Assembly: GCF_963921235.1 (NCBI RefSeq)
Contig: NC_086097.1
Location: 113,896,001-113,960,000 of the forward strand
Origin: Mobula hypostoma
Lineage: Eukaryota
Direction: 5' to 3'
Length of the DNA stretch: 64,000 nucleotides
How positions within the stretch are numbered: position 1 is the first letter of the stretch; each line of letters opens with the position of its first letter. The notes under the pieces are model-generated. The model was given only the letters and a program-made list of their open reading frames with translations, ran no database searches and was not told where the DNA came from. Below are positions 41,196-61,035 of the stretch, piece by piece. The translations under genes and the position numbers were made by a program.

Positions 41196-43139
41196 CAACT
41201 TGCGTGGTGTAAGACTCGGAATTGGTGACGCTCCTGTGATGGCTGCTCCTTATTCTTCTTGGGAGGTTTGGGAGGCACTTGAAAGACATTGCATCAACAT
41301 CTTTTGCCCATATTTCTGTGTAAAACCATAAGACATGGGAGCAGAATTAGGCCCTTCGGTCTATTAAGTCTGCTCCGCTATTTGATCATGTCTGGTTTAT
41401 TAATCCCTCTCAGTCTTTCTCCAGCCTTCTCCCCATAACCTTTGACACCCTTACTAATCAAGAACCTGGATTACCAAGAATATTACATATCATATATTTG
41501 TACTTTCTGGAAAGAAGGCAGGTATTCGTCTGCCATTTGTTAATATGTTCATTCAAATAGCGAGTTGTCTCTACTTACCTAGATAAAGTGCAACGCAGTT
41601 TGCCTTTAGGTTGCATGCATCATATATAAGGGGCTAGACCATTATCGCTACTGCATGAGCTGGAAATATGCTATAGTGTATGGTATTAATATTAGCTGTT
41701 TCCCCTCAAGACTGAGAAAGCTCCTTGCCAGAAATCGTGACATGTCAGTTGTCTTGTTGAGATTTCTGTCTTTTCTCTTAATCCAAATTGCACACTCAGC
41801 ATTATTTTCATAGAGGATGACGTTAGTGCTTTATGGATTTTTTTTATATCAGTGTAGACCAGAGGTCCTTGCAAATGCTAAATATGGCATTCATCCAATG
41901 CTAAATTACTATATTATTGTTTACTTTGCAACATCCCTGCAGCTGAATCAATTGGTTAACTGTTTCATGTGGGTTGATAATGGTCTGAATTATACAGAGA
42001 AACAGATCTGCGTGAGTCTAACAGAAATAGTCCTCACGAAGACATGAACCTGCTTGCATTCTCCTTTTTTGAATTTGTCCATCCCTGGAAGATCATAAGT
42101 AACAGATTCCACAAACGAAAACACAAACGAGCCTGCAATACATTATTTATGACAGTGCCTGTAGCATTATACTGCTGTCTATTTAACTAGATGTACTTTA
42201 AGTCAACTTGTACATCTACGGAGTTTTTAAATTATCTGCCAATATTATTGTCTTAATACTATTTTTTATGTGTATGTGATAAATGTATGTGTTTTACACC
42301 TTGGATCCAAAGGAATGTTGTTTTGATTAGCTGTATACATGTGTATGGTTCAATGACAATCAACCTGAACTTGAAATTGAAATACTGTGTAAAGTAAGAA
42401 TTTGTCAGTCCAGTTGAAGGTGCACTGTATCGGAAAGTAAGCTGGGGCAGCATTTGTGGAGAAAGCGCCAATTTAATGTTTTAGATCAAAGCTGTTTCAG
42501 CATTGAACTGTCCAGATGAGCGTTCTTTGTTTACTCCATTTCTGTTTCCATAAATTCTGTTTGACTTGCGTGAGTGATCTCCATCACTTTCATCATTTCC
42601 ATTGTTTCGGATTTCCCATATTTGATGTCAATTAAAGTGATAGATTTTTAAAGTTTTTTTTTAATGTTACTGCAGAATGTAACGACATATCACTTAAAAG
42701 CACATTCTCCTGTTGAGGAAAAGATATAAAATACAAATGCTATTTATGTGTAGCACTGCTATGTAGAATAATGTGAAAAAGGAAATAGAATTCTGTTTGA
42801 GTTCTCTAACAACAATACAAAGTTATAATAGTGTAAAGTGCTCCGTATGCTTTCTGGTTGGTTTATGTGATCAAATTAATGACCTATTTTACACAATTTT
42901 GCTACATTTTATTTCCTTCCATTAGAGGAAGCCAGTCGAACAGGCCATAAATTGTGCAGAATCTGTAATAAGTAAAGCTTCGACATAAAAGTCTATCATG
43001 CTTGTAATCTGAAAATTGCTAGCATAGAGACCATATTTCCATTCTACCTCTATAACAATGTTTCTGTGCAACTTTCCACTCTCTTTCACTAATATTCAGA
43101 TGCAGAGGGAGTTTGGAAAACTAAAGATGAAGATTAAAG

Positions 43140-45831
43140 GTTACTTGCATCATACACTGGAGTGCTGTCTTCAGTTACCTGATGAGGTAACTGTAGCCTT
43201 TGGCCAGGAGCAGATGTCATCAGGAGCTGCCCAACTTTCATAGAGTGTTTCAACCCTTAACCACTACACTCGCCAGTTAGCAGGTCAGCAGTGGTGGCCA
43301 TGTCACTGGCCATCTGCTCCAGACTTCCAGCTCAACTCCTCTCACCTGCTTCATATCCAGCAAGAGCTCTTTCTGCTTCCTCCTCCATCCTGTGAGCTGC
43401 TTGGTTCTTGCTCTTCTCATCAAGGCCCAGAACAGACAGCAACCTTGCAAACCAACAACCCTCTATAGCCGAGATCCACAGGGAATAGAATAGCCACATC
43501 TGCCATCCTTCGTCCCCGCACTCCTGGACTATGGATTAGTACTTCAGGGCCTTCCTCCCATGGTACTGTGAGCTCCTCCAGGATGATTTTCTTGTCTTCG
43601 GTGGACCATAGTACGATGTCTCGTTGAAGTGTGGTTTGCAGCACCTCTGGGAACTGCAGCTTCCTCCCCACATTGACCCTCATCTTCCATGATTTGGCAG
43701 TTTGCAGCGGACTGGATTTAGGCCTCTTTGACATGACTGGCATGGTTCTCTCCTTGATGAAAATGGCTGCCCTGTTTGCCTCTCTGCCAGCCGGTCTCAT
43801 TTTATACCTTTCCTTCTCCGGTGTGTCAGCAAGGGACAGAGGACCTTGTTGTGGCGCCACATATACCGTCCTTGTGTTAAAACTGTTTTGTATCCTGACA
43901 GTATGTGTGCCAGTGAACCCCACTGACCACAAAGCTTGCAGTTAGAGTCCTCTCTCAGCCCCCATGTGTGCAGCTTTGATGGTGTAGGGAGAGTCTCATA
44001 CAGGGATTGCAGAAGGAAAGAGATGCTGAAGGGATCCATTCTCCAAAGCTCTGCCCAAGTGATCTTGTACTTGGGAAGATCCCATTTTGTCTCGGTGCCC
44101 TGTGACCCCAACTCCACCGCCCGCCTTTTCTCCTCGCAGTTCTGTACCTCTGCCAGGACCATGTCACGCCTATCCCTTGCACTTGCACTCCCCCATCTTT
44201 GGAAATGTGCTGAGCTGAGACCTTGCTGTCCCAGACACGGGTTGCCGATGATGTCTCTCAATTCCAGGGAGCTCACTGCCTGGTCTACGGCTGAGTAGGT
44301 GGCCCACTTTTGGCCCGATCTTGTTGTGATTCCTACTTGATTTAGTAGCTTGTCATTGGAACCCTTCAATGTTAACACAACTCTACATTTTGCCACCTTG
44401 AACTCCTCCACTACAGGAGCTGTAGCTGGCCTGATCTAACGTAGAGCCCCACTGAAGAAAAACTTGGGGAGATCCACAGACACCTCCACAGGTACTTGTT
44501 AGCTTTCTTCTTAAGGCCTTCCACAGTAGTCACGGGGAACCCGTACACCATGAAAAGCCACAGCAGCCTTGGTAAAAGACCATGTTAGTACAACCATGTC
44601 TTAAGTTTACCAGGGGTTCCGGTTTCGTTGATCTTCTTCTGCCACTCTTCAGTCTGCTTTACAGTGTCAGTGATGTTGGCGCTCTCCCTTATCGCTGCAT
44701 TAAACTTCTTTCTGAGTAAACTGAGTTGCCCTCTATGGATGGAATGACTTCTCACTGTACTTGAAGACTGAACTTGCTAGTAACCTTGCCCTTTTTGATC
44801 ACCGTGCATCTGGACTTCCTGGCTTTGGAGGTCATTCTAGCCCAGGTAGCTACATTGCCCAGCGTTTCCAATACCCATCTTGCTTGGACATGGGTTACAG
44901 TGGTCACTGCGATGTATTCCATGAACCCCCATATTGCAAGTTGTTAGATTCCAAGCTCCAACACTGGACCCTGGGTGACGTCTGCTGCTGCAGATATGAG
45001 GAGGTTCATACGCATGACAAACAAGATGGGGAAGGTGGTACAGCCGGTTGGAATCCCTTTTTGGAGGACTTGCCACCCGGTTGTAAAGTGGTCTGAAGTG
45101 AAGTGTGGCTTGAATCCTTCTAGGTAGCTGGTGATCATGTCTCATGTTACTAGCAGGATATGGTAATGGTCTGGGCCAACCTGGATGAGGACGTGTGGAA
45201 CTGATCCGTAGGCGAATGCTAGTTCTAACCAGATGACTGTTAGGTCGCCTTTTTTCTGTCTGGCCTCACGGATCAATTGGCTGATTATTGAGATGTGTTC
45301 AAGGCACCCAGGGAAACCCGGGATGCCACCTTTCTGAATGGATGTAGTGATTTAGCTGTTCTCCATTAAGTAAGAGGTCAGCCTTCTCACAAGCACCAAG
45401 AAGAATATCTTGCACTCCCTGCTAAGGAGGGAGATTGTCCTAAACTTGATGATTATGGAGGAATTTTCTTCCTTGGGAACAAAGCATCCATCAACCATTT
45501 TCCAGCTTGGTGGGATAGAGCCTTTGGTCCAAATCTTCCTCATTATCTTCCACAACCTCCAGAGGAGTTTTGAAAATTTCTTATATACCTTGTAGGGTAT
45601 ACCACTTGGTCCTGGGGTGGCAGATGACTTTGCTCTTTTGATGATATCCTGGACCTCCTGCCACTTCAGTTGTTTGGATTCTTGTTTGGGGGACTTTTGG
45701 ATTGAATTCTAGTCCCTGATTCCTACAGGAATCGCTGTGTGATTCCCACAGAAGTTCTTCCACCTCCTACTTTAAGCCCATTAGGGTGCCAGATTTCTGC
45801 TGGCTGAGAAGAGCTCTGGTGAACCTGAATG
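43140..45831 (-). mobile_element. HERO-like RLE non-LTR retrotransposon, 3' part (RT, CCHC, restriction-like endonuclease, 3' UTR)
   Basis: FRTISLLSRECKIFF, QKGGIPGFPGCLEH, WLELAFAYGSVPH, KGIPTGCTTFPILFV, EEFKVAKCR, CKLCGQWGSLAHILSG, DIVLWSTEDKKIILEELTVPWEE; many frameshifts. Confidence 0.85.
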
Positions 45832-47113
45832 CGTCGGTGCGGGAGCAAGGAGTGCTCGAGGTCGACGGACGACTGGAGATCATTAGGGAACTGGAGCAGG
45901 AGCTGGATGACCTGTGGATCATTCGGGAGAATGAGGAGATTATAGATCGCAGCTACAGGGAGGTAGTTACGCCAAAGGAGCAGAGGACAGGAAATTGGGT
46001 CACTGTCAGGCGAGGGAAGAGGAAAGGGCAGGCAGAGCAGGGTTCCCCTGTGGCCATTCCCCTCAACAACAAGTATACCGCATTGGATACTGCTGGGGGG
46101 GATGACTTACCTGGGACTAGCTGCGGTAGCCGGATCTCTGGCACTGAGTCTGGCTCTGCAGTGCAGAAGGGAGGGGGGGGGGGAAGAGGAGAGCAATAGT
46201 GATAGGGGACTCGATAGTTAGAGGTGCAGATAGAAGGTTCTGTGGTCGTGACAGAGAATCCAGGATGGTTTGTTGCCTCCCAGGTGCCAGGGTCAAGGAT
46301 GTCTCTGATCGATTGCATGACATTCTGAAGTGGGAGGGTGACCAGCCAGATGTCGTGGTGCACATCGGTACCAATGACATAGCAAGGAAGAGTGAAGAGG
46401 TCCTGGACAGTGAGTATAGAGAGCTTGGTAGGAAGTTGAAAAGCAGGACCTCAAGGGTGGTAATCTCAGGATTGCTACCTGTGCTAGGTGCCAGTGAGGG
46501 TAGGAATAGGATGCTCTGGAGGAGGAACAAGTGGCTGAGGAACTGGTGTAGGGGGCAGGGTTTCAGATTTCAGGATCATTGGGACCTCTTCTGGGGCAGG
46601 TGGGACCTGTACAAGAGAGACGGGTTACATTTGAACCACAGGGGGACCAATATCCTTTCAGGGAGGTTTGTTAGTGCTATTGGGGGGGCTTTAAACTAGA
46701 TTTGCAGGGGAATGGGAACCAGAGTGCCAGAGCTGACAGTGTGGCTGGGGTGAAAATAAATGATATTGAAAGTTTAAGCAAATCTGCTGATAGAAAGGTT
46801 GTGAGTGGTGGTAAAAATCTTCTGAGGTGTATATATTTCAATGCTAGGAGTATTGCGGGGAAGGCAGATGAGTTGAGGGCATGGATTGACACGTGGAATT
46901 ATGATGTTGTAGCAATTAGTGAAACTTGGCTACAGGAGGGGCAGGACTGGCAGCTTAATATTCCAGGGTTCCGATGTTTCAGATGTGATCGAGGCAGAGG
47001 AATGAAAGGTGGGGGAGTAGCATTGCTTGTTAGGGAAAATATTACAGCAGTGCTCAGGCAGGACAGATTAGAGGGCTTGTCTACTGAGTCCTTATGGGTG
47101 GAGCTGAGAAACA

Positions 47114-50100
47114 TAGAAACATAGAAACATAGAAAATAGGTGCAGGAGTAGGCCATTCGGCCCTTCGAGCCTGCACCGCCATTTATTATGATCATGGCTG
47201 ATCATCCAACTCAGAACCCCGCCCCAGCCTTCCCTCCATACCCCCTGACCCCTGTAGCCACAAGGGCCATATCTAACTCCCTCTTAAACATAGCCAATGA
47301 ACTGGCCTCAACAGTTTGCTGTGGCAGAGAATTCCACAGATTCACCACTCTCTGTGTGAAGAAGTTTTTCCTAATCTCAGTCCTAAAAGGCTTCCCCTCT
47401 ATCCTCAAACTGTGACCCCTCGTTCTGGACTTCCCCAACATCGGGAACAATCTTCCTGCATCTAGCCTGTCCAATCCCTTTAGGATCTTATACATTTCAA
47501 TCAGATCCCCCCTCAATCTTCTAAATTCCAATGAGTACAAGCCTAGTTCATCCAGTCTTTCTTCATATGAAAGTCCTGCCATCCCAGGAATCAATCTGGT
47601 GAACCTTCTTTGTACTCCCTCTATGGCAAAGATGTCTTTCCTCAGATAAGGGGACCAAAACTGCACACAATACTCCAGGTGTGGTCTCACCGAGGCCTTG
47701 TACAACTGCAGTAGTACCTCCCTGCTCCTGTACTCGAATCCTCTTGCTATAAATGCCAGCATACCATTCGCCTTTTTCACCTTCTGCTGTACCTGCATGC
47801 CCACTTTCAATGACTGGTGTATAATGACACCCAGGTCTCGTTGCACCTCCCCTTTTCCTAATCGGCCACCATTCAGATAATAATCTGTTTTCCTATTTTT
47901 GCCACCAAAGTGGATAACTTCAAATTTATCCACATTAAATTGCATCTGCCATGAGTTTGCCCACTCACCCAACCTATCCAAGTCACCCTGCATCCTCTTA
48001 GCATCCACCTCACTGCTAACACTGCCACCCAGCTTCGTGTCATCTGCAAACTTGGAGATGCTGCATTTAATTCCCTCATGCAAGTCATTAATATATATTG
48101 TAAACAACTGGGGTCCCAGCACTGAGCCTTGCGGTACCCCACTAGTCACCGCCTGCCATTCTGAAAAGGTCCCGTTTATTCCCACTCTTTGCTTCCTGTC
48201 TGCTAACCAATTCTCCACCCACACCAATATCTTACCCCCAATACCGTGTGCTTTAAGTTTGCACACTAATCTCCTGTGTGGGACCTTGTCAAAAGCCTTT
48301 TGAAAATCCAAATATACCACATCCACTGCTTCTCCCCTATCCACTCTACTAGTTACATCCTCAAAAAATTCTATGAGATTCGTCAGACATGATTTTCCTT
48401 TCACAAATCCATGCTGACTTTGTCCGATCATTTCACTGCTTTCCAAATGTGCTGTTATCACATCCTTGATAACTGACTCCAGCAGTTTCCCCACCACCGA
48501 CGTTAGGCTAACCGGTCTATAATTCCCCGGTTTCTCTCTCCCTCCTTTTTTAAAAAGTGGGGTTACATTAGCCACCCTCCAATCCTCAGGAACTAGTCCA
48601 GAATCTAACGAGTTTTGAAAAATTATCACTAATGCATCCACTATTTCTTGGGCTACTTCCTTAAGCACTCTAGGATGCAGACCATCTGGCCCTGGGGATT
48701 TATCGGCCTTCAATCCCTTCAATTTACCTAACACCACTTCCCTACTAACATGTATTTCACTCAGTTCCTCCATCTCACTGGACCCTCTGTCCCTTACTAT
48801 TTCTGGAAGATTATTTATGTCCTCCTTAGTGAAGACAGAACCAAAGTAATTATTCAATTGGTCTGCCATGTCCTTGCTCCCCATAATCAATTCACCTGTT
48901 TCTGTCTGCAGGGGACCTACATTTGTCTTTACCAGTCTTTTCCTTTTTACATATCTATAAAAACTTTTACAGTCCGTTTTTATGTTCCCCGCCAGTTTTC
49001 TCTCATAATCTTTTTTCCCCTTCCTAATTAAGCCCTTTGTCCTCCTCTGCTGAACTCTGAATTTCTCCCAGTCCTCAGGTGAGCCACTTTCTCTGGCTAA
49101 TTTGTATGCTACTTCTTTGGAATTGATACTATCCCTAATTTCTCTTGTCAGCCACGGGTGCATGACCTTCCTTGATTTATTCTTTTGCCAAACTGGGATG
49201 AACAATTGTTGTAGTTCATCCATGCAACCTTTAAATGCTTGCCATTGCATATCCACTGTCAATCCTTTCAGTGTCATTTGCCAGTATATCTTAGCTAATT
49301 CACGTCTCATACCTTCAATGTTACCCCTCTTTAAGTTCAGAACCTTTGTTTCTGAATTAACTATGTCACTCTCCATATTAATGAAGAATTCCACCATATT
49401 ATGGTCACTCTTACCCAAGGGGCCTCTCACGTCAAGATCGCTAATTAACCCTTCCTCATTGCTCAAAACCCAGTCCAGAATAGCCTGCTCTCTCTTGTTG
49501 GTTCCTTGACATGTTGGTTCAAAAAACCATCCCGCATACATTCCAAGAAATCCTCTTCCTCAGCACCTTTACCAATTTGGTTCACCCAGTCTACATGTAG
49601 ATTGAAGTCACCCATTATAACTGCTGTTCCTTTATTGCACACATTTCTAATTTCCTGTTTAATACCATCTCCGACCTCACTACTACTGTTAGGTGGCCTG
49701 TACACAACTCCCACCAGCGTCTTCTGCCCCTTAGTGTTACGCAGCTCTACCCATATCGATTCCACATCTTCCCGGCTTATGTCCTTCCTTTCTATTGCGT
49801 TAATCTCTTCTTTAACCAGCAACGCCACCCCACCTCCCCTTCCTTCATGTCTATCCCTCCTGAATATTGAATATCCCTGAACGTTGAGTTCCCATCCCTG
49901 GTCACCCTGGAGCCATGTCTCTGTGATCCCAACTATATCATAATCATTAATAACAATCTGCACTTTCAATTCATCCACCTTATTACGAATGCTCCTTGCA
50001 TTGACACATAAAGCCTTCAGGCGCTCTTTTACAACTCTCTTAGCCCTTGTACAATTATGTTGAAAAGTGGCCCTTTTTAATGCTTGCCCTGGATTTGTCG

Positions 50101-50227
50101 GCCTGCCACTTTTACTTTTCTCCTTTGTACTTTTTGCTTCTACGCTCACTTTACACCCCTCAGTCTCTCTGCACTGGTTCCCATCCCTCTGTTGTGAACT
50201 AACCTCCTCATGCCTAGCCTCTTTAAT
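47114..50227 (-). mobile_element. Young CR1 LINE (family A) inserted into CR1-B with TSD TGAGAAACA
   Basis: TGAGAAACA at 47105-47113 and 50228-50236; near-identical to 22729-25815. Confidence 0.96.
47211..50227 (-). pseudogene. CR1 ORF2 (APE-RT), open except for one frameshift near 49495
   Basis: ORFs 49463-50278 (APE) and 47211-49541 (RT to stop). CTCTCTTGTTGG here versus CTCTGGTTGG in the 25-kb copy is +2 nt. Confidence 0.92.
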
Positions 50228-52827
50228 TGAGAAACAGGAAAGGTATGGCCACATTAGTGGGATTGTATTACAGGCCACCCAATAGTCAACGAGACTTGGA
50301 AGAGCAAATTTGCAGTGAGATAGCAGGCAACTGCAGGAAACATAAAGTTTTGGTGGTAGGGGATTTTAATTTTCCATACATTGATTGGGACTCCCATACT
50401 GTTAGGGGTCTAGATGGTTTAGAGTTTGTAAAATGTGTTCAGGAAAGTTTTCTAAATCAGTATATGGAGGGACCAACTAGAGGGGATGCAATATTGGATC
50501 TCCTGTTAGGAAACGAATTAGGGCAAGTGACAGAAGTCTGTGTAGGGGAGCACTTTGGTTCCAGTGATCATAACACCATTAGTTTCAATTTGATCATGGA
50601 CAAGGATAGATCTGGTCCTAGGGTTGAGGTTCTGAACTGGAAGAAGGCCAAATTTGAAGAAATGAGAAAGGATCTAAAAAGCGTGGATTGGGACAGATTG
50701 TTCTCTGGCAAAGATGTGATTGGTAGGTGGGAAGCCTTCAAAGGGGAAATTTTGAGAGTGCAGAGTTTGTATGTTCCTGTCAGGATTAAAGGCAAATTGA
50801 ATAGGAATAAGGAACCTTGGTTCTCAAGGGATATTGCAACTCTGATAAAGAAGAAGAGGGAGTTGTATGAAATGTATAGGAAACAGGGGGTAAATCAGGT
50901 GCTTGAGGAGTATAAGAAGTGCAAGAAAATACTTAAGAAAGAAATCAGGAGGGCAAAAAGAAGACATGAGGTTGCCTTGGCAGTCAAAGTGAAGGATAAT
51001 CCAAAGAGCTTTTACAAGTATATTAAGAGCAAAAGGATTGTAAGGGATAAAATTGGTCCTCTTGAAGATCAGAGTGGTCGGCTTTGTGCCGAACCAAAGG
51101 AAATGGGGGAGATCTTAAATAGGTTTTTTGTGTCTGTATTTACTAAGGAAGCTGGCATGAAATCTATGGAATTGAGGGAATCAAGTAGTGAGACCAAAGA
51201 AACTGTACAGATTGAAAAGGAGGAGGTGCTTGCTGTCTTGAGGAAAATTAAAGTGGATAAATCCCCGGGACCTGACAGAGTGTTCCCTCGGACCTTGAAG
51301 GAGACTAGTGTTGAAATTGCGGGGGCCCTGGCAGAAATATTTAAAATGTCGCTGTCTACGGGTGAAGTGCTGGAGGATTGGAGAGTGGCTCATGTTGTTC
51401 CGTTGTTTAAAAAAGGATCGAAAAGTAATCCGGGAAATTATAGGCCGGTGAGTTTAACGTCAGTAGTAGGTAAGTTATTGGAGGGAGTACTAAGAGACAG
51501 AATCTACAAGCATTTGGATAGACAGGGGCTTATTAGGGAGAGTCAACATGGCTTTGTGCGTGGTAGGTCATGTTTGACCAATCTGTTGGAGATTTTCCGA
51601 GGAGGTTACCAAGAAAGTGGATGAAGGGAAGGCAGTGGATATTGTCTACATGGACTTCAGTAAGGCCTTTGACAAGGTCCCGCATGGGGGGGTTAGTTAG
51701 GAAAATTCAGTTGCTAGGTATACATGCAGAGGTGGTAAATTGAATTAGGCATTGGCTCGATGGAAGAAGCCAGAGAGTGGTGGTAGAGAATTGCTTCTCC
51801 GAGTGGAGGCCTGTGACTAGTGGTGTGCCACAGGGATCAGTGCTGGGTCCATTGTTATTTGTCATCTATATCAATGATCTGGATGATAATGTGGTAAATT
51901 GGATCAGCAAATTTGCTGATGATACAAAGGTTGGAGGTATAGTAGACAGTGAGGAAGGTTTTCAGAGCCTGCACAGGGACTTGGACCAGCTGGAAAAATG
52001 GGATGAAAAATGGCAGATGGAGTTTAATACTGACAAGTGTGAGGTATTGCACGTTGGAAGGACAAACCAAGGTAGAACATACAGGGTTAATGGTAAGGCA
52101 CTGAGGAGTGCAGTGGAACAGAGGGATCTGGGAATACAGATACAAAGTTCCCTAAAAGTGTCGTCACAGGTAGATAGGGTCGTAAAGAGAGCTTTTGGTA
52201 CATTGGCCTTTATTAATCAAAGTATTGAGTATAAGAGCTGGAATGTTATAATGAGGTTGTTTAAGGCATTGGTGAGGCCGAATCTGGAGTATTATGTTCA
52301 GTTTTGGTCACCAAATGACAGGAAGGATATAAGTAAGGTTGAAAGAGTGCAGAGAAGGTTTACAAGGATGTTGCCGGGACTTGAGAAACTCAGTTACAGA
52401 GAAAGGTTGAATAGGTTGTGACTTTATTCCCTGGAGCGTAGAAGAATGAGGGGAGATTTGATAGAGGTATATAAAATTATGATGGGTATAGATAGAGTGA
52501 ATGCAAGCAGGCTTTTTCCACTGAGGCAAGGGGAGAAAAAAACCAGAGGACATGGGTTAAGGGGTGAGGGGGGAAACGTTTAAAGGGAACATTAGCGGGG
52601 GCTTCTTCACACAGAGAGTGGTGGGAGTATGGAATGAGCTGCCAGATGAGGTGGTAAATGCGGGTTCTTTTTTAACATTTAAGAATAAATTGGACAGATA
52701 CATGGATGGGAGGTGTATGGAGGGATATGGTCCGTGTGCAGGTCAGTGGGACTAGGCAGAAAATGGTTCGGCACAGCCAAGAAGGGCCAAAGGGCTGTTT
52801 CTGTGCTGTAGTTTCTATGCTTCTATC

Positions 52828-55800
52828 TGAGGATCGGAGGATCAGCCGTTGTAGGTAGGCCGAGGAAGATCGGGACTACCTAGGCATTACCTGAGGAGGA
52901 AGGTAAAACTGCGCGGGCACGGGTGATGTCAGCGGCGAGCGCGGAGTTTAAAAAGAGGCCCACTTTCAGGTGCCGGCAGCGGAGTGTGCGGGAGCAGAGT
53001 GCTGGGCTTTGGCTCAGTGGGCTTCGGCGTAAGGGGATCTACGGTGAGAGGTAATCAGTGAGCCTGAGTACGTGCTTGCTGAGGAAAAAAGGTAAGGTCG
53101 GTAGGTACTTTTTCATTTATTCTGATTAATCTGGGATCAGGTAATGGGGGAGACAGTTAGAGCAGTGGTGTGCTCCGTATGCAGTATGTGGGAGGTCAGG
53201 GTCAATGCAGTTGTCCCTGATGACCACACCTGCAGAAGGTGCATCCAGCTGCAGCTCCTATCAGAGCGAGTTAGGGAATTGGAGCTGGAGCTGGATGAAC
53301 TACGGATCATTAGGGAGGCAGAGACAGAGAAAGATAAGAGTTATCGGGAGGTAGTCACACCGAAAAGACGGGAGGTAGGCAACTGGGTGACTGTCAGGAG
53401 ATCGAGTGGGAGCAGGCAGAGAGAGCAGAGCACCCCTGTGGCCATTCCTATCAACAATAAGTATACCGTTTTGGATACTGTTGGTGGGGATGACCTACCA
53501 GGAACAAGTTGCAGTGGTCCTGTCTCTAGCACTGAGGTTGGACCCTCGACTCAGAAGGGGAGGAGGGAAGAGAGGACAGCGGTAGTGATACGGGATTCTA
53601 TAGTCAGGGGGGCAGATAGGAGATTTTGTGGGGGAGATCGGGAGTCTCGGATGGTATGTTGCCTCCCTAGTGCCGGGGTCCGGGACATCTCAGATTGGGT
53701 GCAGGTTATTTTCGAGAGGGAGGGCAAGAATCCAGATGTTGTGGTCCATGTAGGGACCAACGACGTGGGTAGGAAGAGTGAGGGGGTCCTGCGTAGTGAG
53801 TTCAGGGAATTAGGTGCGAAGCTGAAGGGCAGGACCTCCAGGGTAACAATCTCAGGATTGCTACCTGTGCCACGTGCGAGTGAGGCGAGGAACAGAAGGA
53901 TTATACAGATCAATACATGGCTGAGAGGATGGTGCAGGAGGGAGGACTTCAGGTTTTTAGATAATTGGGCTTTGTTCCAGGGAAGGTGGGATCTGTTCCA
54001 AGGGGACGGTTTACACCTGAACTGGAGGGGTACTAACATTCTTGCAGGAAAGTTTGCTGGTGCTGCTTGGGGGGGGTTTTAAACTAAATTTGCAGGGGGC
54101 AGGGATCCAGAATGTGAGAGAGGTTAGCGAGATGAAGTATAAAGGACAGGTGGGGACTACACGGTTCTGGAATATTAAGTGTGAAGTAGAGAAAGGTGAG
54201 GCGGAACGAGTGATAAGGAGGATACATGTGCAGAGGGATGGTCTGATGGAGCATGGAGTTAAATGTGCAGAAAGAGTAAGTAAATTTAAGAAGGACAACA
54301 AAATTCAAGGGGCGTATAGCCCGGTTGAGAGTTTAGGGAGCTGGGTTATGCACAACAGGCAGCGATTTAAACAAAGAGAGGAGAAATGGGTTAAAAATTC
54401 TATATCTGAATCCGCGAAGTGTCAGAAATAAGGCGGATGAGCTTGAAGCTCAGGTGCGAATGGGTAACTATGATGTTGTTGGGATAACGGAGACATGGCT
54501 GCAGGGGGATCAGACCTGGGAATTGAATGTACGAGGGTATACGTGCTATTGAAGGGACAGAAAGGTGGGCAGTGGGGGTGGGGTGGCCCTGTTGGTGAGG
54601 AATGAGATTCAGTCCCTTGCAAGGGGGGACATAGAATCAGGAGAAGTAGAGTCAGTGTGGATAGAACTGAGGAAGAGTAAGGGCAAAAAGACCCTAATCG
54701 GTGTTATCTACAGGCCCCCAAACAGTAGCATGGATATTGGGTGCAAGTTGAATAGGGAGTTAACAATGGCATGTGGCAAAGGAAACGTCACAGTAGTTAT
54801 GGGGGATTTCAACATACAGGTGAACTGGGAAAATCAGGTTGGTACTGGACCCCAGGATAGGTAGTTTGTAGAGTGCCTACGGGATGCATTTTTGGAGCAG
54901 CTTGTACGAGAGCCAACCAGGGATAAGGCTATTCTGGATTTAGTGTTGTGCAATGAACAGGACTTGATAAGTGATCTTGAAGTAAAGGAGCCATTAGGAG
55001 GTAGTGACCATAATATAATAAGTTTTTATCTGCAAGTTGAGAGAGATAAGGGCAGATCAGAAGGGACAGTATTGCAGTTGAACAAAGGAGACAATGGAGC
55101 CATGAAGGAGGAGCTGGCCAAAGTTCACTGGTCGGATATCCTAGCAGAAAAGACAGTGGAACAGCAATGGCAGGTATTCTTGGGAATAATGCACAAGGTG
55201 CAAAATCAGTTCATCCCCCAGAGAAGGAAGGATTCAAAGGGGGGAAAGTGGCCACAGTGGTTGACAAAGGAAGTCAGAGATAGCATAGCATTAAAAAAGA
55301 AGTATAACAGAGCTAAGGTGAGTGGGAAGACGGATGATTGGGAAATTTTTAAGGAGCAACAGAACTTAACTAAAAAGGCAATATTGGGAGAAAAAATGAG
55401 GTATGAACGCAAGCTAGCTAGGAATATAAAGGAGGATAGTAAAAGTTTTTTTAGGTATGTGAAGAGAAGGAAGATAGTTAAGAACAATGTTGGGCCCTTG
55501 AAGAATGAATTGGGAGAAATTATTATGGGAAACAGAGAAATGGCAGACGAATTTAATAAGTACTTTGGATCTGTCTTCACTACGGAAGACACAAGCAATC
55601 TCCCAGATGTATGGATGAGCCAAGGACATAGGGTAACAGAGTAACTGAAACAGATTGACATTAGGAAGGAAACGGTGATGAGTAGACTGATGGGACTGAA
55701 GGCTAACAAATCCCCAGGTCCAGATGGTCTGCATCCTGGGGTACTAAAGGAGGTGGCTCTGGAAATTGTGGATGCATTGGTGATCATTTTCCAATGTTCC

Positions 55801-57291
55801 TTAGATTCAGGATCAGTTCCTGAGGATTGGTGAATGGCTAATATTATCCCACTTTTTAAGAAAGGAGGGAGGGAGAAAACAGAGAACTATCGCCCTGTTA
55901 GCCTAACATCAGTAGTCGGGAAGATACTAGAGTCCATTATTAAAGATGAAATAGCGACATATCTTGATAGCAGTGATAGGATTGGGCCGAGCCAGCATGG
56001 ATTTACCAAGGGCAAATCATGCTTGACTAATCTATTGGAGTTTTTCGAGGATGTAACCAGGAAGATAGAGGCGGGAGATCCAGTGGATGTGGTGTACCTT
56101 GACTTTCAGAAGGCATTTGATAAGGTACCACATAGGAGATTGGTGGGTAAAATCAGAGCTCACGGCATTGGGGGGAGGATATTGACATGGATAGAAAACT
56201 GATTGGCAGATAGAAAGCAAACGGTAGCAGTGAATGGGTGTTTCTCGGAATGGCAGGTGGTGACTAGTGGGGTGCCACAGGGCTTGGTATTGGGACCACA
56301 GCTGTTTACGATTTACATCAATGATTTAGAGGAAGGCATTGTGAATAACATCCGCAAGTTTGCTGATGATACTAAGCTGGGTGGCAGTGTGACATGTGAT
56401 GAGGATGTTAGGTGTGTTCAAGGTGACTTGGATAGGCTGGCTGAGTGGGCAGAAACTTGGCAGATGGCATTTAATGTGAATAAGTGTGAGGTTATTCACT
56501 TTGGGAGCAAGAACAGGAAGGCAGATTATTATCTGAACGGTGTGGAGTTAGGTAAGGGAGAAATACAAAGAGATCTAGGAGTACTTGTTCATCAGTCTCT
56601 GAAGGTGAATGAGCAAGTGCAGCAGGCAGTGAAGAAGGCTAATGGAATGTTGGCCTTTATTACAAAGGGTATTGAGTATAAAAGCAAGGAAATCCTTTTG
56701 TATTTGTACAGGGCCCTGGTGAGACCACACCTGGAGTATTGTGTGCAGTTTTGGTCTCCAGGGTTAAGGAAGGACATCCTGGCTGTGGAGGAGGTGCCGC
56801 GTAGGTTGACTAGGTTAATTCCTGGGATGTCCGGACTGTCTTATGCAGAGAGGTTAGAGAGACTGGGCTTGTACACGCTGGAATTAAGGAGATCGAGGGG
56901 GGATCTGATTGAGACATATAAGATTATTAAGGGATTGGACAAGATAGAGGCAGGAAATATGTTGCAGATGCGGGGAGAGTCCAGTACCAGAGGGCATGGT
57001 TTAAGAATAAGGGGTAGGTCAGTTAGGACAGAGTTGAGGAAGAACTTCTTCTCCCAGAGAGTTGTGGAGGTGTGGAACGCGCTGCCTCAGAAGGCAGTGG
57101 AGGCCAATTCTCTGGATGCTTTCAAGAAGGAGCTAGATAGGTATCTTATGGATAGGGGAATCAAGGGTTATGGGGACAAGGCAGGAACCGGGTATTGATA
57201 GTAGATGATCAGCCATGATCTCAGAATGGCAGTGCAGGCTCGAAGGGCCGAATGGTCTACTTCTGCACCTATTGTCTATTACTATTACTAT
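52828..57291 (+). mobile_element. CR1 LINE (family C), essentially full length (5' UTR, ORF1, ORF2 with stops, tail)
   Basis: CpG-rich 5' UTR; ORF1 at 53144-54082; ORF2 motifs to 57198 with in-frame stops (e.g. 54862, 55642, 55831, 56200); CTATTACTATTACTATT tail. Confidence 0.93.
53144..54082 (+). CDS. CR1 ORF1 protein: Cys zinc-finger/leucine zipper plus SGNH esterase-like domain
   Basis: ATG-initiated 312-aa ORF: CSVC...CRRC, LQLLSERVRELELELDEL, VIRDSIVRG (G>R at the GDS block), HVGTNDV, DGLHLN. Confidence 0.88.
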   Translation: MGETVRAVVCSVCSMWEVRVNAVVPDDHTCRRCIQLQLLSERVRELELELDELRIIREAETEKDKSYREVVTPKRREVGNWVTVRRSSGSRQREQSTPVAIPINNKYTVLDTVGGDDLPGTSCSGPVSSTEVGPSTQKGRREERTAVVIRDSIVRGADRRFCGGDRESRMVCCLPSAGVRDISDWVQVIFEREGKNPDVVVHVGTNDVGRKSEGVLRSEFRELGAKLKGRTSRVTISGLLPVPRASEARNRRIIQINTWLRGWCRREDFRFLDNWALFQGRWDLFQGDGLHLNWRGTNILAGKFAGAAWGGF

Positions 57292-57710
57292 TAACAAACT
57301 GTACTCTCCTTCTCCCTCTCTCCCCTCTTCACTTTTGCAGCAGCTCCACCTTCCTGAGCTTCATGTAACTGTTCCCGCAGTTTGCTGGTTAGATCGTTAA
57401 GACCTTCTGTTTCGTCAGGTGAACTATTTTTGAGTTGTTTGTTCAGGGTCCTTATCTCGCTTCTCAGGTGGTGAATCTTCCTTTCCTTTCTGTTTGGTTG
57501 CTGTGATGGTTTAAGATCCACCTTCTTCTCCATTGCGCCGAATCGCTCTTTAGCAAAGTTGTGAGGGAGTCAATTTATCTGCAGACAGGTCCTGACAGTG
57601 TAGCTTCCAAGATGCAATCCAGGTTGTCATCAAACTGCTACCGAGATACATTGCCTGATGATCTAGGCCATCAGATCCACGCTTCCCTTGATGACTGGAT
57701 TACTTCACTT
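57292..57710 (-). mobile_element. HERO-like element, middle fragment
   Basis: FAKERFGAMEKKVDLKPSQQPNRKERKIHHLRSEIRTLNKQ... leads into ...VQFV, which continues as PFRFTRALL at 45831. Confidence 0.8.
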
Positions 57711-59916
57711 TATACTTTATTGTCACCAAACAATTGATACTAGAATGTACAATCATCACAGCGATATTTGATTCTGCGCTTCCCACTCCCTGGATTACAA
57801 ATATTAAATATTAAAAATATTAAAGATTAGTAAACATTAAAAATTTAATTTATAAATCATAAATAGAAAATAGAAAAATGGAAAATAAGGTAGTGCAAAA
57901 AAACCGAGAGGCAGGTCCGGATATTTGGAGGGTACGGCCCAGATCCAGGTCAGGATCCGTTCAGCAGTCTTATCACAGTTGGAAAGAAGCTGTTCCCAAA
58001 TCTGGCCATATGAATCTTCAAGCTCCTGAGCCTTCTCCCGGAGGGAAGAGGGACGAAAAGTGTGTTAGCTGGGTGGGTTGTGTCCTTGATTATCCTGGCA
58101 GCACTGCTCTGACAGTGTGCGGTGTAAAGTGAGTCCACAGACGGAAGATTGGTTTCTGTGATGTGCTGCGCCGTGTTCACGATCTTCTGCAGCTTCTTTC
58201 GGTCTTGGACAGGACAACTTCCATACCAGGTTGTGATGTACCCTAGAAGAATGCTTTCTACGGTGCATCTATAAAAAATAGTGAGGGTTTTAGGGGACAG
58301 GCCAAATTTCTTTAGTTTTCTCAGGAAGTAAAGGCGCTGGTGGGCCTTCTTGGCAGTGAACTCTGCTTGGTTGGATCAAGTCAGGTCATTTGTGATATTG
58401 ACCCCAAGGAACTTAAAGCTTTTGACCTGTTCCACTTGCGCACCACCAATGTAAATTGGGTCGTGAGGTCCGCTACTCCTTCTGAAGTCAACAACCAATT
58501 CCTTCATCTTGCTGACGTTGAGGGATAGGTTATTGTCTTCACACCATGCCACTAGGTTCTTAATTTCCTCTCTGTACTCAAACTCGTCATTACCTGAGAT
58601 ATGGCCTACAATTGTTGTGTCATCAGCAAACTTATATATTGAGTTTGATGGAAAATTGGCTACACAATCATGGGTGAACAGTGAGTACAGCAGGGGGCTG
58701 AGTACACAGCCTTGTGGGGCACCGGTGCTCAGAGTGATTGTAGAGAAGAGCTTGTCCCTTATTTTTACAGCCTGGATCCTGTCTGTGAGGAAGTTGAAGA
58801 TCCAGCTGCAGATCTGAGTGCTAAGGCCCAGGTTCCGGAGCTTAGGAATCAGTTTGTTTGGAATGATGGTATTAAAGGCAGAGCTGTAGTCAATGAAAAG
58901 GAGTGTTACGTATGCGTCTTTATTCTCCAGATGTTCTAAGGAGGATCGTAGGGCCAGAGAGATGACATCTGCCGTTGTTCTGTTGCTCCGGTAGGCAAAT
59001 TGCAAAGCGTCGAGGTTGACTGGTAGGCTGTGGTTGATGTGTGCCATAACTAATCGCTCGAAGCACTTTATAGCAATTGATGTCACAGCCACAGGTCGAC
59101 AGTCATTCAGGCATGCCACCTTACTCTTCTTCAGCACTGGGATTATCTGTTGCCTTCTTAAAACACGAGGGGATCTTACACTGAAGCAAGGAGCAGCTGA
59201 AGATGTCAGCAAACACTCCAGCTAGCTCGCTTGCACCGGCCCGGAGAACCCATCCTGGGACGCCATCTGGGCCCGTCACCTTCCTTGGACTTAGCTTCAG
59301 GAAGACCCTTCTAACATCCTCCTCAGTGATGATGAATCTCGATGCCACCAGGTCCGGTTCATCCGAAGGGAGCGGGATGCTCCTCTTCTGTTCGAATCTT
59401 GCGTAGAATACGTTGTTCATCAGGAAGAGAAGTGCCACAGTTATTGTTATTCCCAGCCTTTTCTTTGCGGCCAGTGATCTCATTTAGACCCTGCCATAGT
59501 CTACTGGCATCCCTTTGGTTAAGCTGGGCTTCCAACTTGGCTCGATATTGCCTCGGCGCCCTTAATGGCTTTCTGGAGTTCACGCCTGGATTCCGTGTAG
59601 CGACTGGTATCCCCGGACCTAAAGGCCATAGCTCTAGCCTTTAAAAGGGACTTGACCTCATAATTCATCCAAGGTTTCCGGTTGGGGAATACCCGGATTG
59701 TCTTGCGAGACACGCAGTCCTCCGTGCATTTCCAAATAAAGTCCGTGACAGCTGACGCATACTTATCGAGGTTGATCTTGATCTTGCTAGATTGGAGGTT
59801 TAGAAGGGTTTCTCGGGTATAGGATAGTGGAGAGGGCAGTTTGCTCGGGAGAGCCCGCGCAAAGTCACCAGTTACTGGCCCCATCTTTAAATACATTAGG
59901 GTGTCAGAGAGCGCAC
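57711..59916 (-). mobile_element. Rex1/Babar LINE with both ends and an internal deletion of the endonuclease; TSD TCACTT
   Basis: TCACTT at 57705-57710 and 59917-59922. 5' AAGATGGGGCC...YTRETLLNL is joined near 59773 to DKYASAVTDFIWKC. RT motifs [29 protein letters not shown] and KFADD. Confidence 0.92.
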
Positions 59917-59922
59917 TCACTT

Positions 59923-60425
59923 GGTCTCGCCTTTGGCACTGGGGTGGTTCAGGTGCAGAGAGGTCTTCAGCTCTGTGGGGTGCTTCCTGGCTGCAGATCT
60001 CCATCATCTCACCAGATGTTGAGTCCATGTGTTGCTCTTGAGTTGCCTTCGTTCCGCAGCTGGATGTGATTTAGTGTATTTTGAGGCCTGTAATGTTTTT
60101 GCAGAATTTGCCAAAATGGCACTTTGCAATGAATGCCTCCCCAATCAGTGTTGTTTATTTGAGTCTTCTTCTTATCGTATTTCCAGTTCTGGCCATTGTC
60201 ATTATGTCTGTCCTATTGAGTCTCTCATCCTACCCCCCTCTCCAGAGACTCTGGGGGTATTGCACATTTAGTTCATCCGTAGCTTGTATGGTGCCCTCTT
60301 GCGGGTGCTGCACATAAGTTTGCAAGCTTTTTGAGCCCATACCAGTCTTTCCTGGAGATCGGTTGTCTATCCAACATCACCAACCTTTCTCGGTTGCCAT
60401 CTAGTCTTTCCTGGAAGTCACTGGC
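59923..60425 (-). mobile_element. HERO-like element, 5' fragment (5' UTR, N-terminal zinc finger)
   Basis: YPQSLWRGG...KCHFGKFCKNITGLKIH...SQEAPHRAEDL; contiguous with 57710 across the Rex TSD. Confidence 0.75.
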
Positions 60426-60429
60426 AAAC

Positions 60430-60765
60430 CAGATTATTTGTCACATGTATATTGCAACATCAAACACACTGTAAAATGTTTCATTTTCTGCATCAAATCA
60501 AATCAGTCACAATTTTGCTGAGCAGACTACAAGTGTCACCATGATCTGTCACCAACATAGTATGCCCACAGACCAGTACTCACTAACCCTAACTGTTGGT
60601 CTTCTGAATGTCCCCAGCAGGAAACTGGAGAACCTGGAGGAAACCCCTGCAGTCATGAGGAGACCATAGAAACTCCTTACAGGCAGCAGTGGGAATTGAA
60701 CCCCAATTGGTAAAAGCTGGTGCTATAATAGCGTTACATTAACCACATAGCGACGCTACCATGTC
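60430..60765 (-). mobile_element. V-SINE-like element
   Basis: Minus-strand B box GGGTTCAATTCCC and V-domain GGGTTTCCTCCAGGTTCTCCAGTTTCCT. Confidence 0.65.
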
Positions 60766-61035
60766 CACCGTCCTAGCAAAACATTATAGATAATCTCAAT
60801 TAGAATCAAGATTTCTCTAATTCTTTTTGCCCCTTCATTTCATTGAAAAGATATTGCATTTTCATTTAGACTTACCTCATAACTAATGCCTCTCAAGTGT
60901 CAAATACTAATATCACTAATATCTCAGTAATTTATAACTACATTCACGCCCACTTCAGAACCTCTCCTAACAATTTACACTAAGTATAATTCATATTGCA
61001 ATGTAGAAAATATAGCAGATCAGTTAAGTACAGTA

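Follow-up and report, generated by a model that had tools for sequence, protein, structure and literature searches.

The 3' untranslated region (UTR) of HERO-type long interspersed nuclear elements (LINEs) holds a conserved RNA motif that carries the sequence signature of the hammerhead ribozymes in an unusual strand order. A decayed copy lies on the minus strand of the DNA analyzed here, a stretch of 64,000 nucleotides from Mobula hypostoma (contig NC_086097.1, positions 113,896,001 to 113,960,000; hereafter the window), at 43207-43320, just 3' of a broken HERO-type open reading frame (ORF). Comparison of this copy with its relatives leaves very little doubt that the motif adopts, as drawn below, a double-pseudoknot fold whose hammerhead core is split between A9 and G10.1. 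Helices I, II, III, P4 and X are shown by covariation, and a further hairpin, P0, is supported by one top-ranked column pair together with folding. On the strength of these sequence comparisons, we regard the motif as a real conserved RNA structure and as a new hammerhead topology in a new setting.

Sampling of the HERO family

Relatives were collected from the host genome and from metagenome contigs. The host-genome search returned 1444 candidates, of which 40 were scored and 30 fetched; the core and stems I-III are intact in two of these 30 host copies. Starting from an alignment of 13 C-terminal protein parts, 279 relatives were found in metagenome contigs; the best of these relatives gave 79 loci, a selection based on protein and nothing else. 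In 58 of the 79 loci, corresponding to 34 families at 80% identity, the motif could be placed by a parser with CUGANGA and GAAA as its anchors. The sequence-only MAFFT alignment contains 32 rows, namely 31 of the 34 family representatives (three were dropped for contig ends) and the window copy, and the tree on which compensatory events were counted was built from coding DNA, with 7062 column pairs ranked. A covariance model trained on 31 loci and the window matches 70 of the 79 loci, all on the sense strand (31 of the loci having trained the model), and recovers degenerate copies that lie outside the parser; among the nine loci missed, four have at most 46 nt after the ORF and one has 119. 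Named relatives of the protein come from bony fish, amphioxus and bivalves, names that belong to the proteins and not to the 79 metagenome loci. In viral contigs, 14 pattern matches were found, none of which is a relative.

A double-pseudoknot fold with a split core

Taken together, helices X, II, P4, III and I are paired in 88.7% of the cells of the 32-row alignment, compared with 63.4% after shuffling; changes on both sides occur in 25 of 27 pairs, none of 500 shuffles reaches the observed value, and slid controls give 36-43%. The top 13 of the 7062 column pairs by compensatory events all fall within the model, hairpin P0 contributing one. The individual helices conform to this picture. Across the 34 families, stem I is 97% Watson-Crick paired (45% with partners swapped) and stem III 94% (66% when swapped), while stem II, formed with an upstream strand, is a perfect 5-bp helix in 28 families (swap mean 19%, maximum 38%, with equal register freedom) and is paired in 93.7% of its cells in the 32-row alignment. 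Of 31 families, 26 form at least seven of the eight pairs of stem X (null mean 8.2, maximum 14), helix P4 is 82.1% paired in the sequence-only alignment, and the linker between stems I and II ranges from 2 to 8 nt across families.

Read 5' to 3' on the minus strand, the motif opens with the 5' strand of stem X (43320-43311), which lies in the last codons of the ORF and makes 10 of 10 pairs in the window copy with its partner at 43216-43207. Hairpin P0 (43309-43288) follows, with the stop codon at 43305-43303 and the loop hexamer TGGCCA at 43300-43295; its column pair 39-59 ranks sixth of the 7062. The 5' strand of stem II (43286-43282) starts with G10.1 at 43286 and pairs with 43256-43252, and one base further on begins the 5' strand of P4 (43280-43275), which makes six of six pairs in the window copy with 43236-43231. 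The non-bulged strand of a kink-turn-like motif (43274-43272; GGA in the family, A to C at 43272 in the window copy) leads into the covarying 5' strand of stem III (43271-43265), containing U16.1 at 43266 and H17, here an A, at 43265. By analogy, the predicted cut falls between 43265 and 43264. Downstream of it lie the 5' strand of stem I (43264-43260), which is supported by covariation on the tree, a 3-nt linker, the 3' strand of stem II (43256-43252; C11.1 reads T in the window copy, the C11.1 column counting T 18 and C 12), and then G12-A13-A14 and the 3' strand of stem III from A15.1 onward (together 43251-43243, GAAA being 43251-43248). The bulged strand of the kink-turn-like motif (43242-43237), consisting of a 3-nt bulge, GA and N, is followed by the 3' strand of P4 (43236-43231), the 3' strand of stem I (43228-43224; ACCAC in the family by the 30-copy majority, with two substitutions in the window copy), the core strand C3-U4-G5-A6-N7-G8-A9 (43223-43217, reading CUGAUGA) and, with its first base directly after A9, the covarying 3' strand of stem X (43216-43207).

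Part of this arrangement had been recognized in a first-pass annotation of the window, which proposed a pseudoknotted, non-standard hammerhead-like fold in the 3' UTR of a HERO-like LINE with a restriction-like endonuclease (RLE). That proposal is borne out. The letters it quoted are present on the minus strand; its stem III (GAGUGU/ACACUC) makes six of six pairs, with H17 and GAAA at the positions given above; and CUGAUGA lies farther on, past a 14-nt segment, in the order cut site, GAAA, CUGANGA (S-G-C) that it had described. Its stem I, drawn from GUGGU with three of five pairs in the window copy, is restored to five of five (GUGGU/ACCAC) by the 30-copy majority. The true partner strand of stem II (43286-43282) and three more helices lie beyond the segment to which the annotation was confined, the full motif extending over 43320-43207.

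Since G10.1 opens a strand upstream of the cut and A9 closes the core strand downstream of it, the two residues are not adjacent. G10.1 is found about 70 nt farther upstream, stem X takes up the base that follows A9, and the gap is bridged by this covarying stem together with hairpin P0. Stem X and P0 also overlap the last codons and the stop codon (window 43320-43303), and translation could therefore unfold the ribozyme junction. In one family, a short duplication in the 3' UTR (L063:2283-2407 and L060) repeats the GAAAC-stem III segment inside the motif.

Kink-turn-like joint and loop hexamer

A kink-turn comprises a helix, a 3-nt bulge, tandem G.A and A.G pairs and a second helix, and the joint between P4 and stem III has this sequence pattern. 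A 3-nt bulge with GA on both strands is present in 23 of the 34 families, one or both GA being missing in the other 11, and the joint is accompanied by at least four of five flanking pairs in 22 families. A bend of the kink-turn type at this joint would answer a geometric puzzle posed by Eckert et al. (2023; PMC10085705, to whose available parts all our comparisons with that work are confined), namely how the far end of stem III connects to an interaction helix. L044, L051, L097 and their families have no kink-turn-like motif and a 9-nt link from stem III to stem I; they keep P4 and the core.

A self-complementary hexamer occurs within the 28 nt before G10.1 in 25 of the 34 families (shuffle mean 11.5, maximum 21). 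TGATCA and TGGCCA, located in the P0 loop, make up most of these hexamers; a few sit in stems, and nine families are without one.

Core signature and predicted catalysis

In the 32 rows, the motif displays the hammerhead core C3-U4-G5-A6-N7-G8-A9, G12-A13-A14 and A15.1-U16.1, with H17 other than G, surrounded by the covariation-supported stems I-III along with the G10.1-C11.1 pair. All four bases occur at N7 (11 changes); at H17, which changes 13 times on the tree, U, C and A are seen but no G; and G10.1 is conserved in 30 and C11.1 in 29 of the 32 rows. A free N7, an H17 that is never G and a retained G10.1-C11.1 pair constitute the pattern of active hammerheads, and by this analogy the motif is very probably catalytic in active elements, with predicted self-cleavage after H17. 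Two points speak against such an assignment. The invariance of CUGANGA is partly built in, because the rows were selected by the CUGANGA anchor, and no precedent for a helix junction between A9 and G10.1 was found in the open literature. H17 was also constrained in the parser; seven unparsed degenerate copies, read by eye, likewise have no G at this position.

The copy in the window

The broken ORF at 43306-45835 (minus strand) encodes the reverse transcriptase, zinc knuckle and RLE of a HERO-type LINE, as identified by tblastn with the full-length relative P0002. This single-ORF layout, a reverse transcriptase with a CCHC zinc knuckle and a C-terminal RLE, is that of the HERO clade, the motif names being those we take to be customary. 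A zf-RVT match in the window ORF (E 0.0002) is below Pfam's cut-off, and the solved structures nearest to P0002 are R2 proteins. The naming of the clade rests on similarity to P0107 (AAN12398.1, clustered with BAC82599.1), which we take to be Zebulon/HEROTn and which is 41% identical to the window ORF piece over 196 aa. Among the HERO-like proteins, P0102, P0110 and P0112 have an extra Pfam domain, PF08719, the extension being C-terminal in P0102.

Other parts of the element lie farther away on the same strand. Similarity to P0002 (tblastn) marks a middle piece of the same type at 57345-57701, likely of the same copy and severed by later insertions, and the 5' UTR and ORF start, likely also of the same copy, lie at 59915-60440, with little or no terminal redundancy there. 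The copy appears to be unit-length, its parts being separated (45832-59914) by about 13.5 kb of sequence inserted later, for the most part CR1-like LINEs. Within the insertions lie a reverse transcriptase ORF on the minus strand (47211-49559), belonging to the CR1-like sequences, and an ORF (46148-46699) that resembles an SGNH esterase. Just upstream of the HERO 5' start, at about 60600-60770 on the minus strand, is a sequence similar to a tRNA-derived short interspersed nuclear element with a central domain resembling that of V-SINEs. On the 3' side, the remaining 3' UTR (43206-43143) stops where insertions have their fixed 3' end, about 120 nt beyond the predicted cut; agreement among the 30 copies collapses there (at about 43143).

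The window copy departs from its family at two positions in stem I, at C11.1, which has become U, and at one kink-turn base; the change at C11.1 is likely CpG decay, and the copy itself is likely inactive. The covariance model finds one match in the window, at 43202-43329 with 97 bits, the window being itself a training row. The bare pattern matches the window once, compared with 0.1 matches expected per shuffled 64-kb window (40 shuffles), and a single copy therefore proves little; it is the family data that make the motif firm. Nested energy folding of the window copy, a method blind to pseudoknots, keeps stem X and part of stem III. A scan of 42000-49000 against Rfam with E up to 5 returned five weak matches and no hammerhead or other ribozyme.

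Structure of HERO insertions

In the host genome, the one 3' end that HERO insertions share lies about 120 nt beyond the predicted cut. Of the ordinary 3' copies, 27 of 28 extend more than 100 nt through the predicted cut site, and a linear RNA cut there could therefore not have been their template. At the other end of the element, 25 of 30 5' starts of a sister subfamily are preceded by the element's own 3' end at a fixed junction, and in the family of the window copy the element's own 3' end stands directly upstream of the 5' start, again at a fixed junction, in 22 of 30 loci. This head-to-tail junction is essentially fixed and without added bases, and the upstream piece of 3' end is variable in length. 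Among the metagenome contigs, several close as cycles, and the 5' start motif follows the putative ribozyme in 8 of the 25 family representatives with enough sequence. HERO insertions thereby present terminally repeated DNA with one such motif per unit, as retrozymes do. In L254 (G000:C45:87651779-87652421), part of the element's 5' UTR has expanded into tandem repeats with a period of about 59 bp.

The two ends of an insertion could be compared in 14 of 20 full-length copies. The ends of one insertion share 19 non-CpG variants, compared with a mean of 7.2 (maximum 15) in 5000 mismatched pairings. A single target duplication of 36-64 nt surrounds the redundancy plus unit in three of the 14 insertions, and the other 11 have none; for the three copies with a shared target duplication, two independent insertions were rejected as the source of the redundancy. 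These duplications, in L176, L179 and L184, are unusually long (39, 36 and 64 nt, respectively). L175, which lies inside a CR1 copy, resembles an insertion with a target deletion.

The 5' ends of the redundancies were mapped in 68 copies, 42 kept from the initial set and 26 new. Two duplicates, three rearranged loci and 13 copies without measurable redundancy had been dropped beforehand, and five 5'-end values of 691, an artefact of a reference break, were treated as censored. The redundancy reaches the cut site in 48 cases; in 39 of them it overshoots the site by more than 15 nt (by about 2.2 kb in one), and most templates must thus have been continuous there. In one insertion, the sequence goes on past the shared 3' end for another 100 nt of 5' UTR. 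Post hoc, 5' ends seemed to gather 30-49 nt downstream of the cut (8 versus 1.7 expected), a cluster that was discarded when the new copies failed to replicate it (1 versus 1.4).

Proposed mechanism and alternatives

The explanation that we modestly favor is predicted self-cleavage of tandem transcripts, followed by circularization and by rolling-circle reverse transcription from an internal start. In such a cycle, the kink-turn would bend stem III and let P4 clamp stems I and II, with X and P0 bulging out at the A9/G10.1 step. The transcript of a redundant copy would be cut at both ribozymes to yield unit-length RNA, whose 5'-OH and cyclic-phosphate ends a host RtcB-type ligase, or else the ribozyme, could join; reverse transcriptase would then start at a fixed internal site, primed on target DNA, and could run past one round, thereby renewing the redundancy. 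A circular template with an internal start explains the fixed junction, the shared variants, the single target duplications and the redundancies that pass the cut. If the motif is catalytic, a circular template is somewhat more likely than not; for a circular RNA intermediate overall, the chances are about even.

Several observations weigh against a circular template and lend themselves to an alternative in which an active ribozyme serves as a 5'-end processor on linear RNA, like the hepatitis delta virus (HDV)-like ribozyme of R2. The upstream redundant copy would then free the element from a read-through transcript, the downstream copy would often escape cleavage, the reverse transcriptase would prime at the true RNA 3' end, and the redundancy would either be inherited or arise anew when the enzyme jumps from one RNA to another, the two being perhaps paired through their P0 loops, a role for which the self-complementary hexamers of 25 families offer support. 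In keeping with this scheme, subfamily variants differ between the two ends of L175 and of L184, the latter being a single insertion by its target duplication despite its discordant ends. In L031, the 3' end directly upstream of the full-length element (L031:300-1060) comes from another HERO family, its UTR having 78.5% identity to that of the element; this arrangement is possibly a template switch between families, or else an assembly chimera. The discordance in L175 and L184 and the foreign 3' end in L031 suggest that some events involved a template switch or a source other than a circle. Priming at a genuine RNA end would likewise be compatible with the short CAAG duplications present at some 3' ends. 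Finally, 5' ends within 5 nt of the cut are in excess among the first 42 copies (4 versus 0.5 expected); the 26 further copies did not reproduce this excess (1 versus 0.4; pooled, 5 versus 0.9), and it is accordingly a hint only, one that in its pooled form would suit linear processing. We nevertheless consider the 5'-end processor unlikely, given that 39 of 48 redundancies pass the cut site, that both ends of an insertion share private variants, and that the junction is essentially fixed and free of added bases, unlike the end-to-end jumps said to occur in R2.

The remaining alternatives deny the motif either its activity or its fold. A hammerhead-shaped but non-catalytic recognition element for the element's own reverse transcriptase would accommodate the fact that the strand after CUGANGA is truly held in another helix and that nearly all complementary DNA (cDNA) passes the cut site. 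It is distinctly unlikely in view of a stem II that does form, from upstream, with a canonical G10.1-C11.1 pair, and of an H17 that changes 13 times without becoming G beside a free N7, the pattern expected from catalytic selection. An ordinary type-SGC or dimer-dependent hammerhead, in which the strand right after CUGAUGA supplies stem II, is highly improbable. The S-G-C order and 3-nt linker do match type SGC (PMC10085705), and four of five pairs, mostly G-U, can be drawn in the window family. The first-pass annotation had read stem II in this way, as GGGU/AUCU, and a plain type-SGC hammerhead with the helix GGGC/GCUC was our own initial reading, since dropped. Whereas stems I and III of the annotation covary in the 34 families, its stem II does not: no family forms it fully, even with offsets of 0-2 nt; 47.5% of its cells are paired, compared with 43.0% after shuffling and 50-55% in two slid controls; and its core-adjacent pair occurs in 3 of 32 rows, with 0-1 compensatory events per pair on the tree. 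The covariation contradicts it, the strand concerned being occupied by the separate helix, stem X, and the dimer that the annotation had entertained is not needed to form the core. The idea that the resemblance is fortuitous, or that a decayed repeat contains a box C/D-like motif, would draw on the bare pattern's occurrence in 10% of shuffled windows and on the likeness of UGAUGA and CUGA to boxes C and D; with 70 of 79 loci matched by the model, all on the sense strand, and covarying helices surrounding a core in which N7 varies freely, this notion is refuted at the family level and can practically be set aside.

If ribozyme-made circles are the favored route, a broader picture can be assembled, which we put forward tentatively and at somewhat less than even confidence. 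HERO elements would be autonomous LINEs that transpose through a ribozyme-made circular RNA, and the ribozyme would represent a seventh natural hammerhead wiring, with its core split at A9/G10.1; the natural kink-turn could allow control of cleavage by L7Ae-family proteins, the palindromic loop could pair two RNAs, and a translating ribosome could switch cleavage off.

Relation to known ribozymes and retroelements

The motif shares with all hammerheads the core sequence and helices, and yet A9 is joined to G10.1 neither directly nor through one or two bases. For want of this link it lies outside types I-III as well as type SGC. Types I, II and III are nested three-way junctions with the order CGS, GSC or SCG; in the HERO motif the order differs and the helices cross. 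Its closest relatives are the type-SGC hammerheads (HRIMA-1 and variants), which Eckert et al. (2023; PMC10085705) described from metatranscriptomes in terms of the blocks S (cut site), G (GAAA) and C (CUGANGA), and for which cleavage was shown. The two have in common the S, G, C order, stems I and II as two pseudoknots, a short linker between these stems, and an extra helix joining their far sides, the covarying P4 of HERO being the counterpart of the type-SGC "interaction" helix. In type SGC, CUGAUGA is followed by the stem II strand at once or with a single U in between, whereas in HERO this strand lies upstream of block S, stem X and P0 occupy the gap, a kink-turn-like joint connects P4 and stem III, and block C is intact in none of the 34 families. 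The type-SGC search patterns required CUGAUGAG or CUGAUGAUG, and the HERO motif fails both; they permitted an extra U between A9 and G10.1. The connectivity of the assayed SGC-1, as we read it from its oligonucleotides, includes the series II5'-purine-helix and a 3-nt I-II linker, the same as in HERO, and judging by sequence and connectivity the HERO motif is a circular permutation of type SGC, opened at A9/G10.1 where SGC-1 has a bulged U (PMC10085705).

In the open literature, that is, without subscription papers and Repbase notes and with part of the supplement of PMC10085705, we found no hammerhead in HERO elements, no split at A9/G10.1 and no natural hammerhead kink-turn, and the term "type-SGC" in one paper only; further alignments belonging to PMC10085705 could bear on novelty. 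Within that scope, what appears new is the A9/G10.1 split, the kink-turn-like joint and the retrotransposon setting, the S-G-C order having been published already (PMC10085705). Eckert et al. assume that each block is indivisible, which leaves six possible orders, and a split core breaks this assumption (PMC10085705). The motif moreover places a pseudoknotted hammerhead in animal-type genomic DNA, and earlier pattern searches would have missed motifs of this kind. If it is active, its built-in kink-turn and the helices at A9/G10.1 would make such a hammerhead a natural scaffold for RNA switches.

As for the tandem insertions, Zebulon of Tetraodon is said to undergo partial tandem array retrotransposition, and the tandem habit is therefore probably known already. 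We know of no ribozyme in the reports on Zebulon and HEROTn by Bouneau et al. (2003) and Kojima and Fujiwara (2004). If our reading holds, reverse transcription of a circle would be a testable cause of the partial tandem insertions of HERO, by a route that has until now been suggested for retrozymes and for Penelope-like elements. As far as the accessible parts of the relevant reports go (PMC4209133, PMC7229834, bioRxiv 10.64898/2026.07.22.740005), those elements, like HERO, carry a ribozyme in the terminal or tandem repeat of a retroelement, and unit-length RNA, circles and tandem cDNA have been proposed or shown for them; the animal retrozymes provide a precedent for a circular template, including ligation by RtcB in vitro (PMC7229834). 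Their hammerheads are of type I or III, in Penelope-like or non-coding elements, whereas HERO is an autonomous LINE with reverse transcriptase and RLE and its motif has another topology. The HDV-like ribozymes of R2 and other non-LTR elements, so far as their description was available (PMC13725137), likewise reside in an RLE LINE and could free element RNA from a longer transcript, as the predicted self-cleaving RNA of HERO could; they belong to another ribozyme class and lie at the 5' end, whereas the HERO motif lies in the 3' UTR and comes to stand upstream of the 5' start only through terminal redundancy. Should the HERO motif prove catalytic, self-cleaving RNA in RLE LINEs would extend beyond the 5' HDV-like type.

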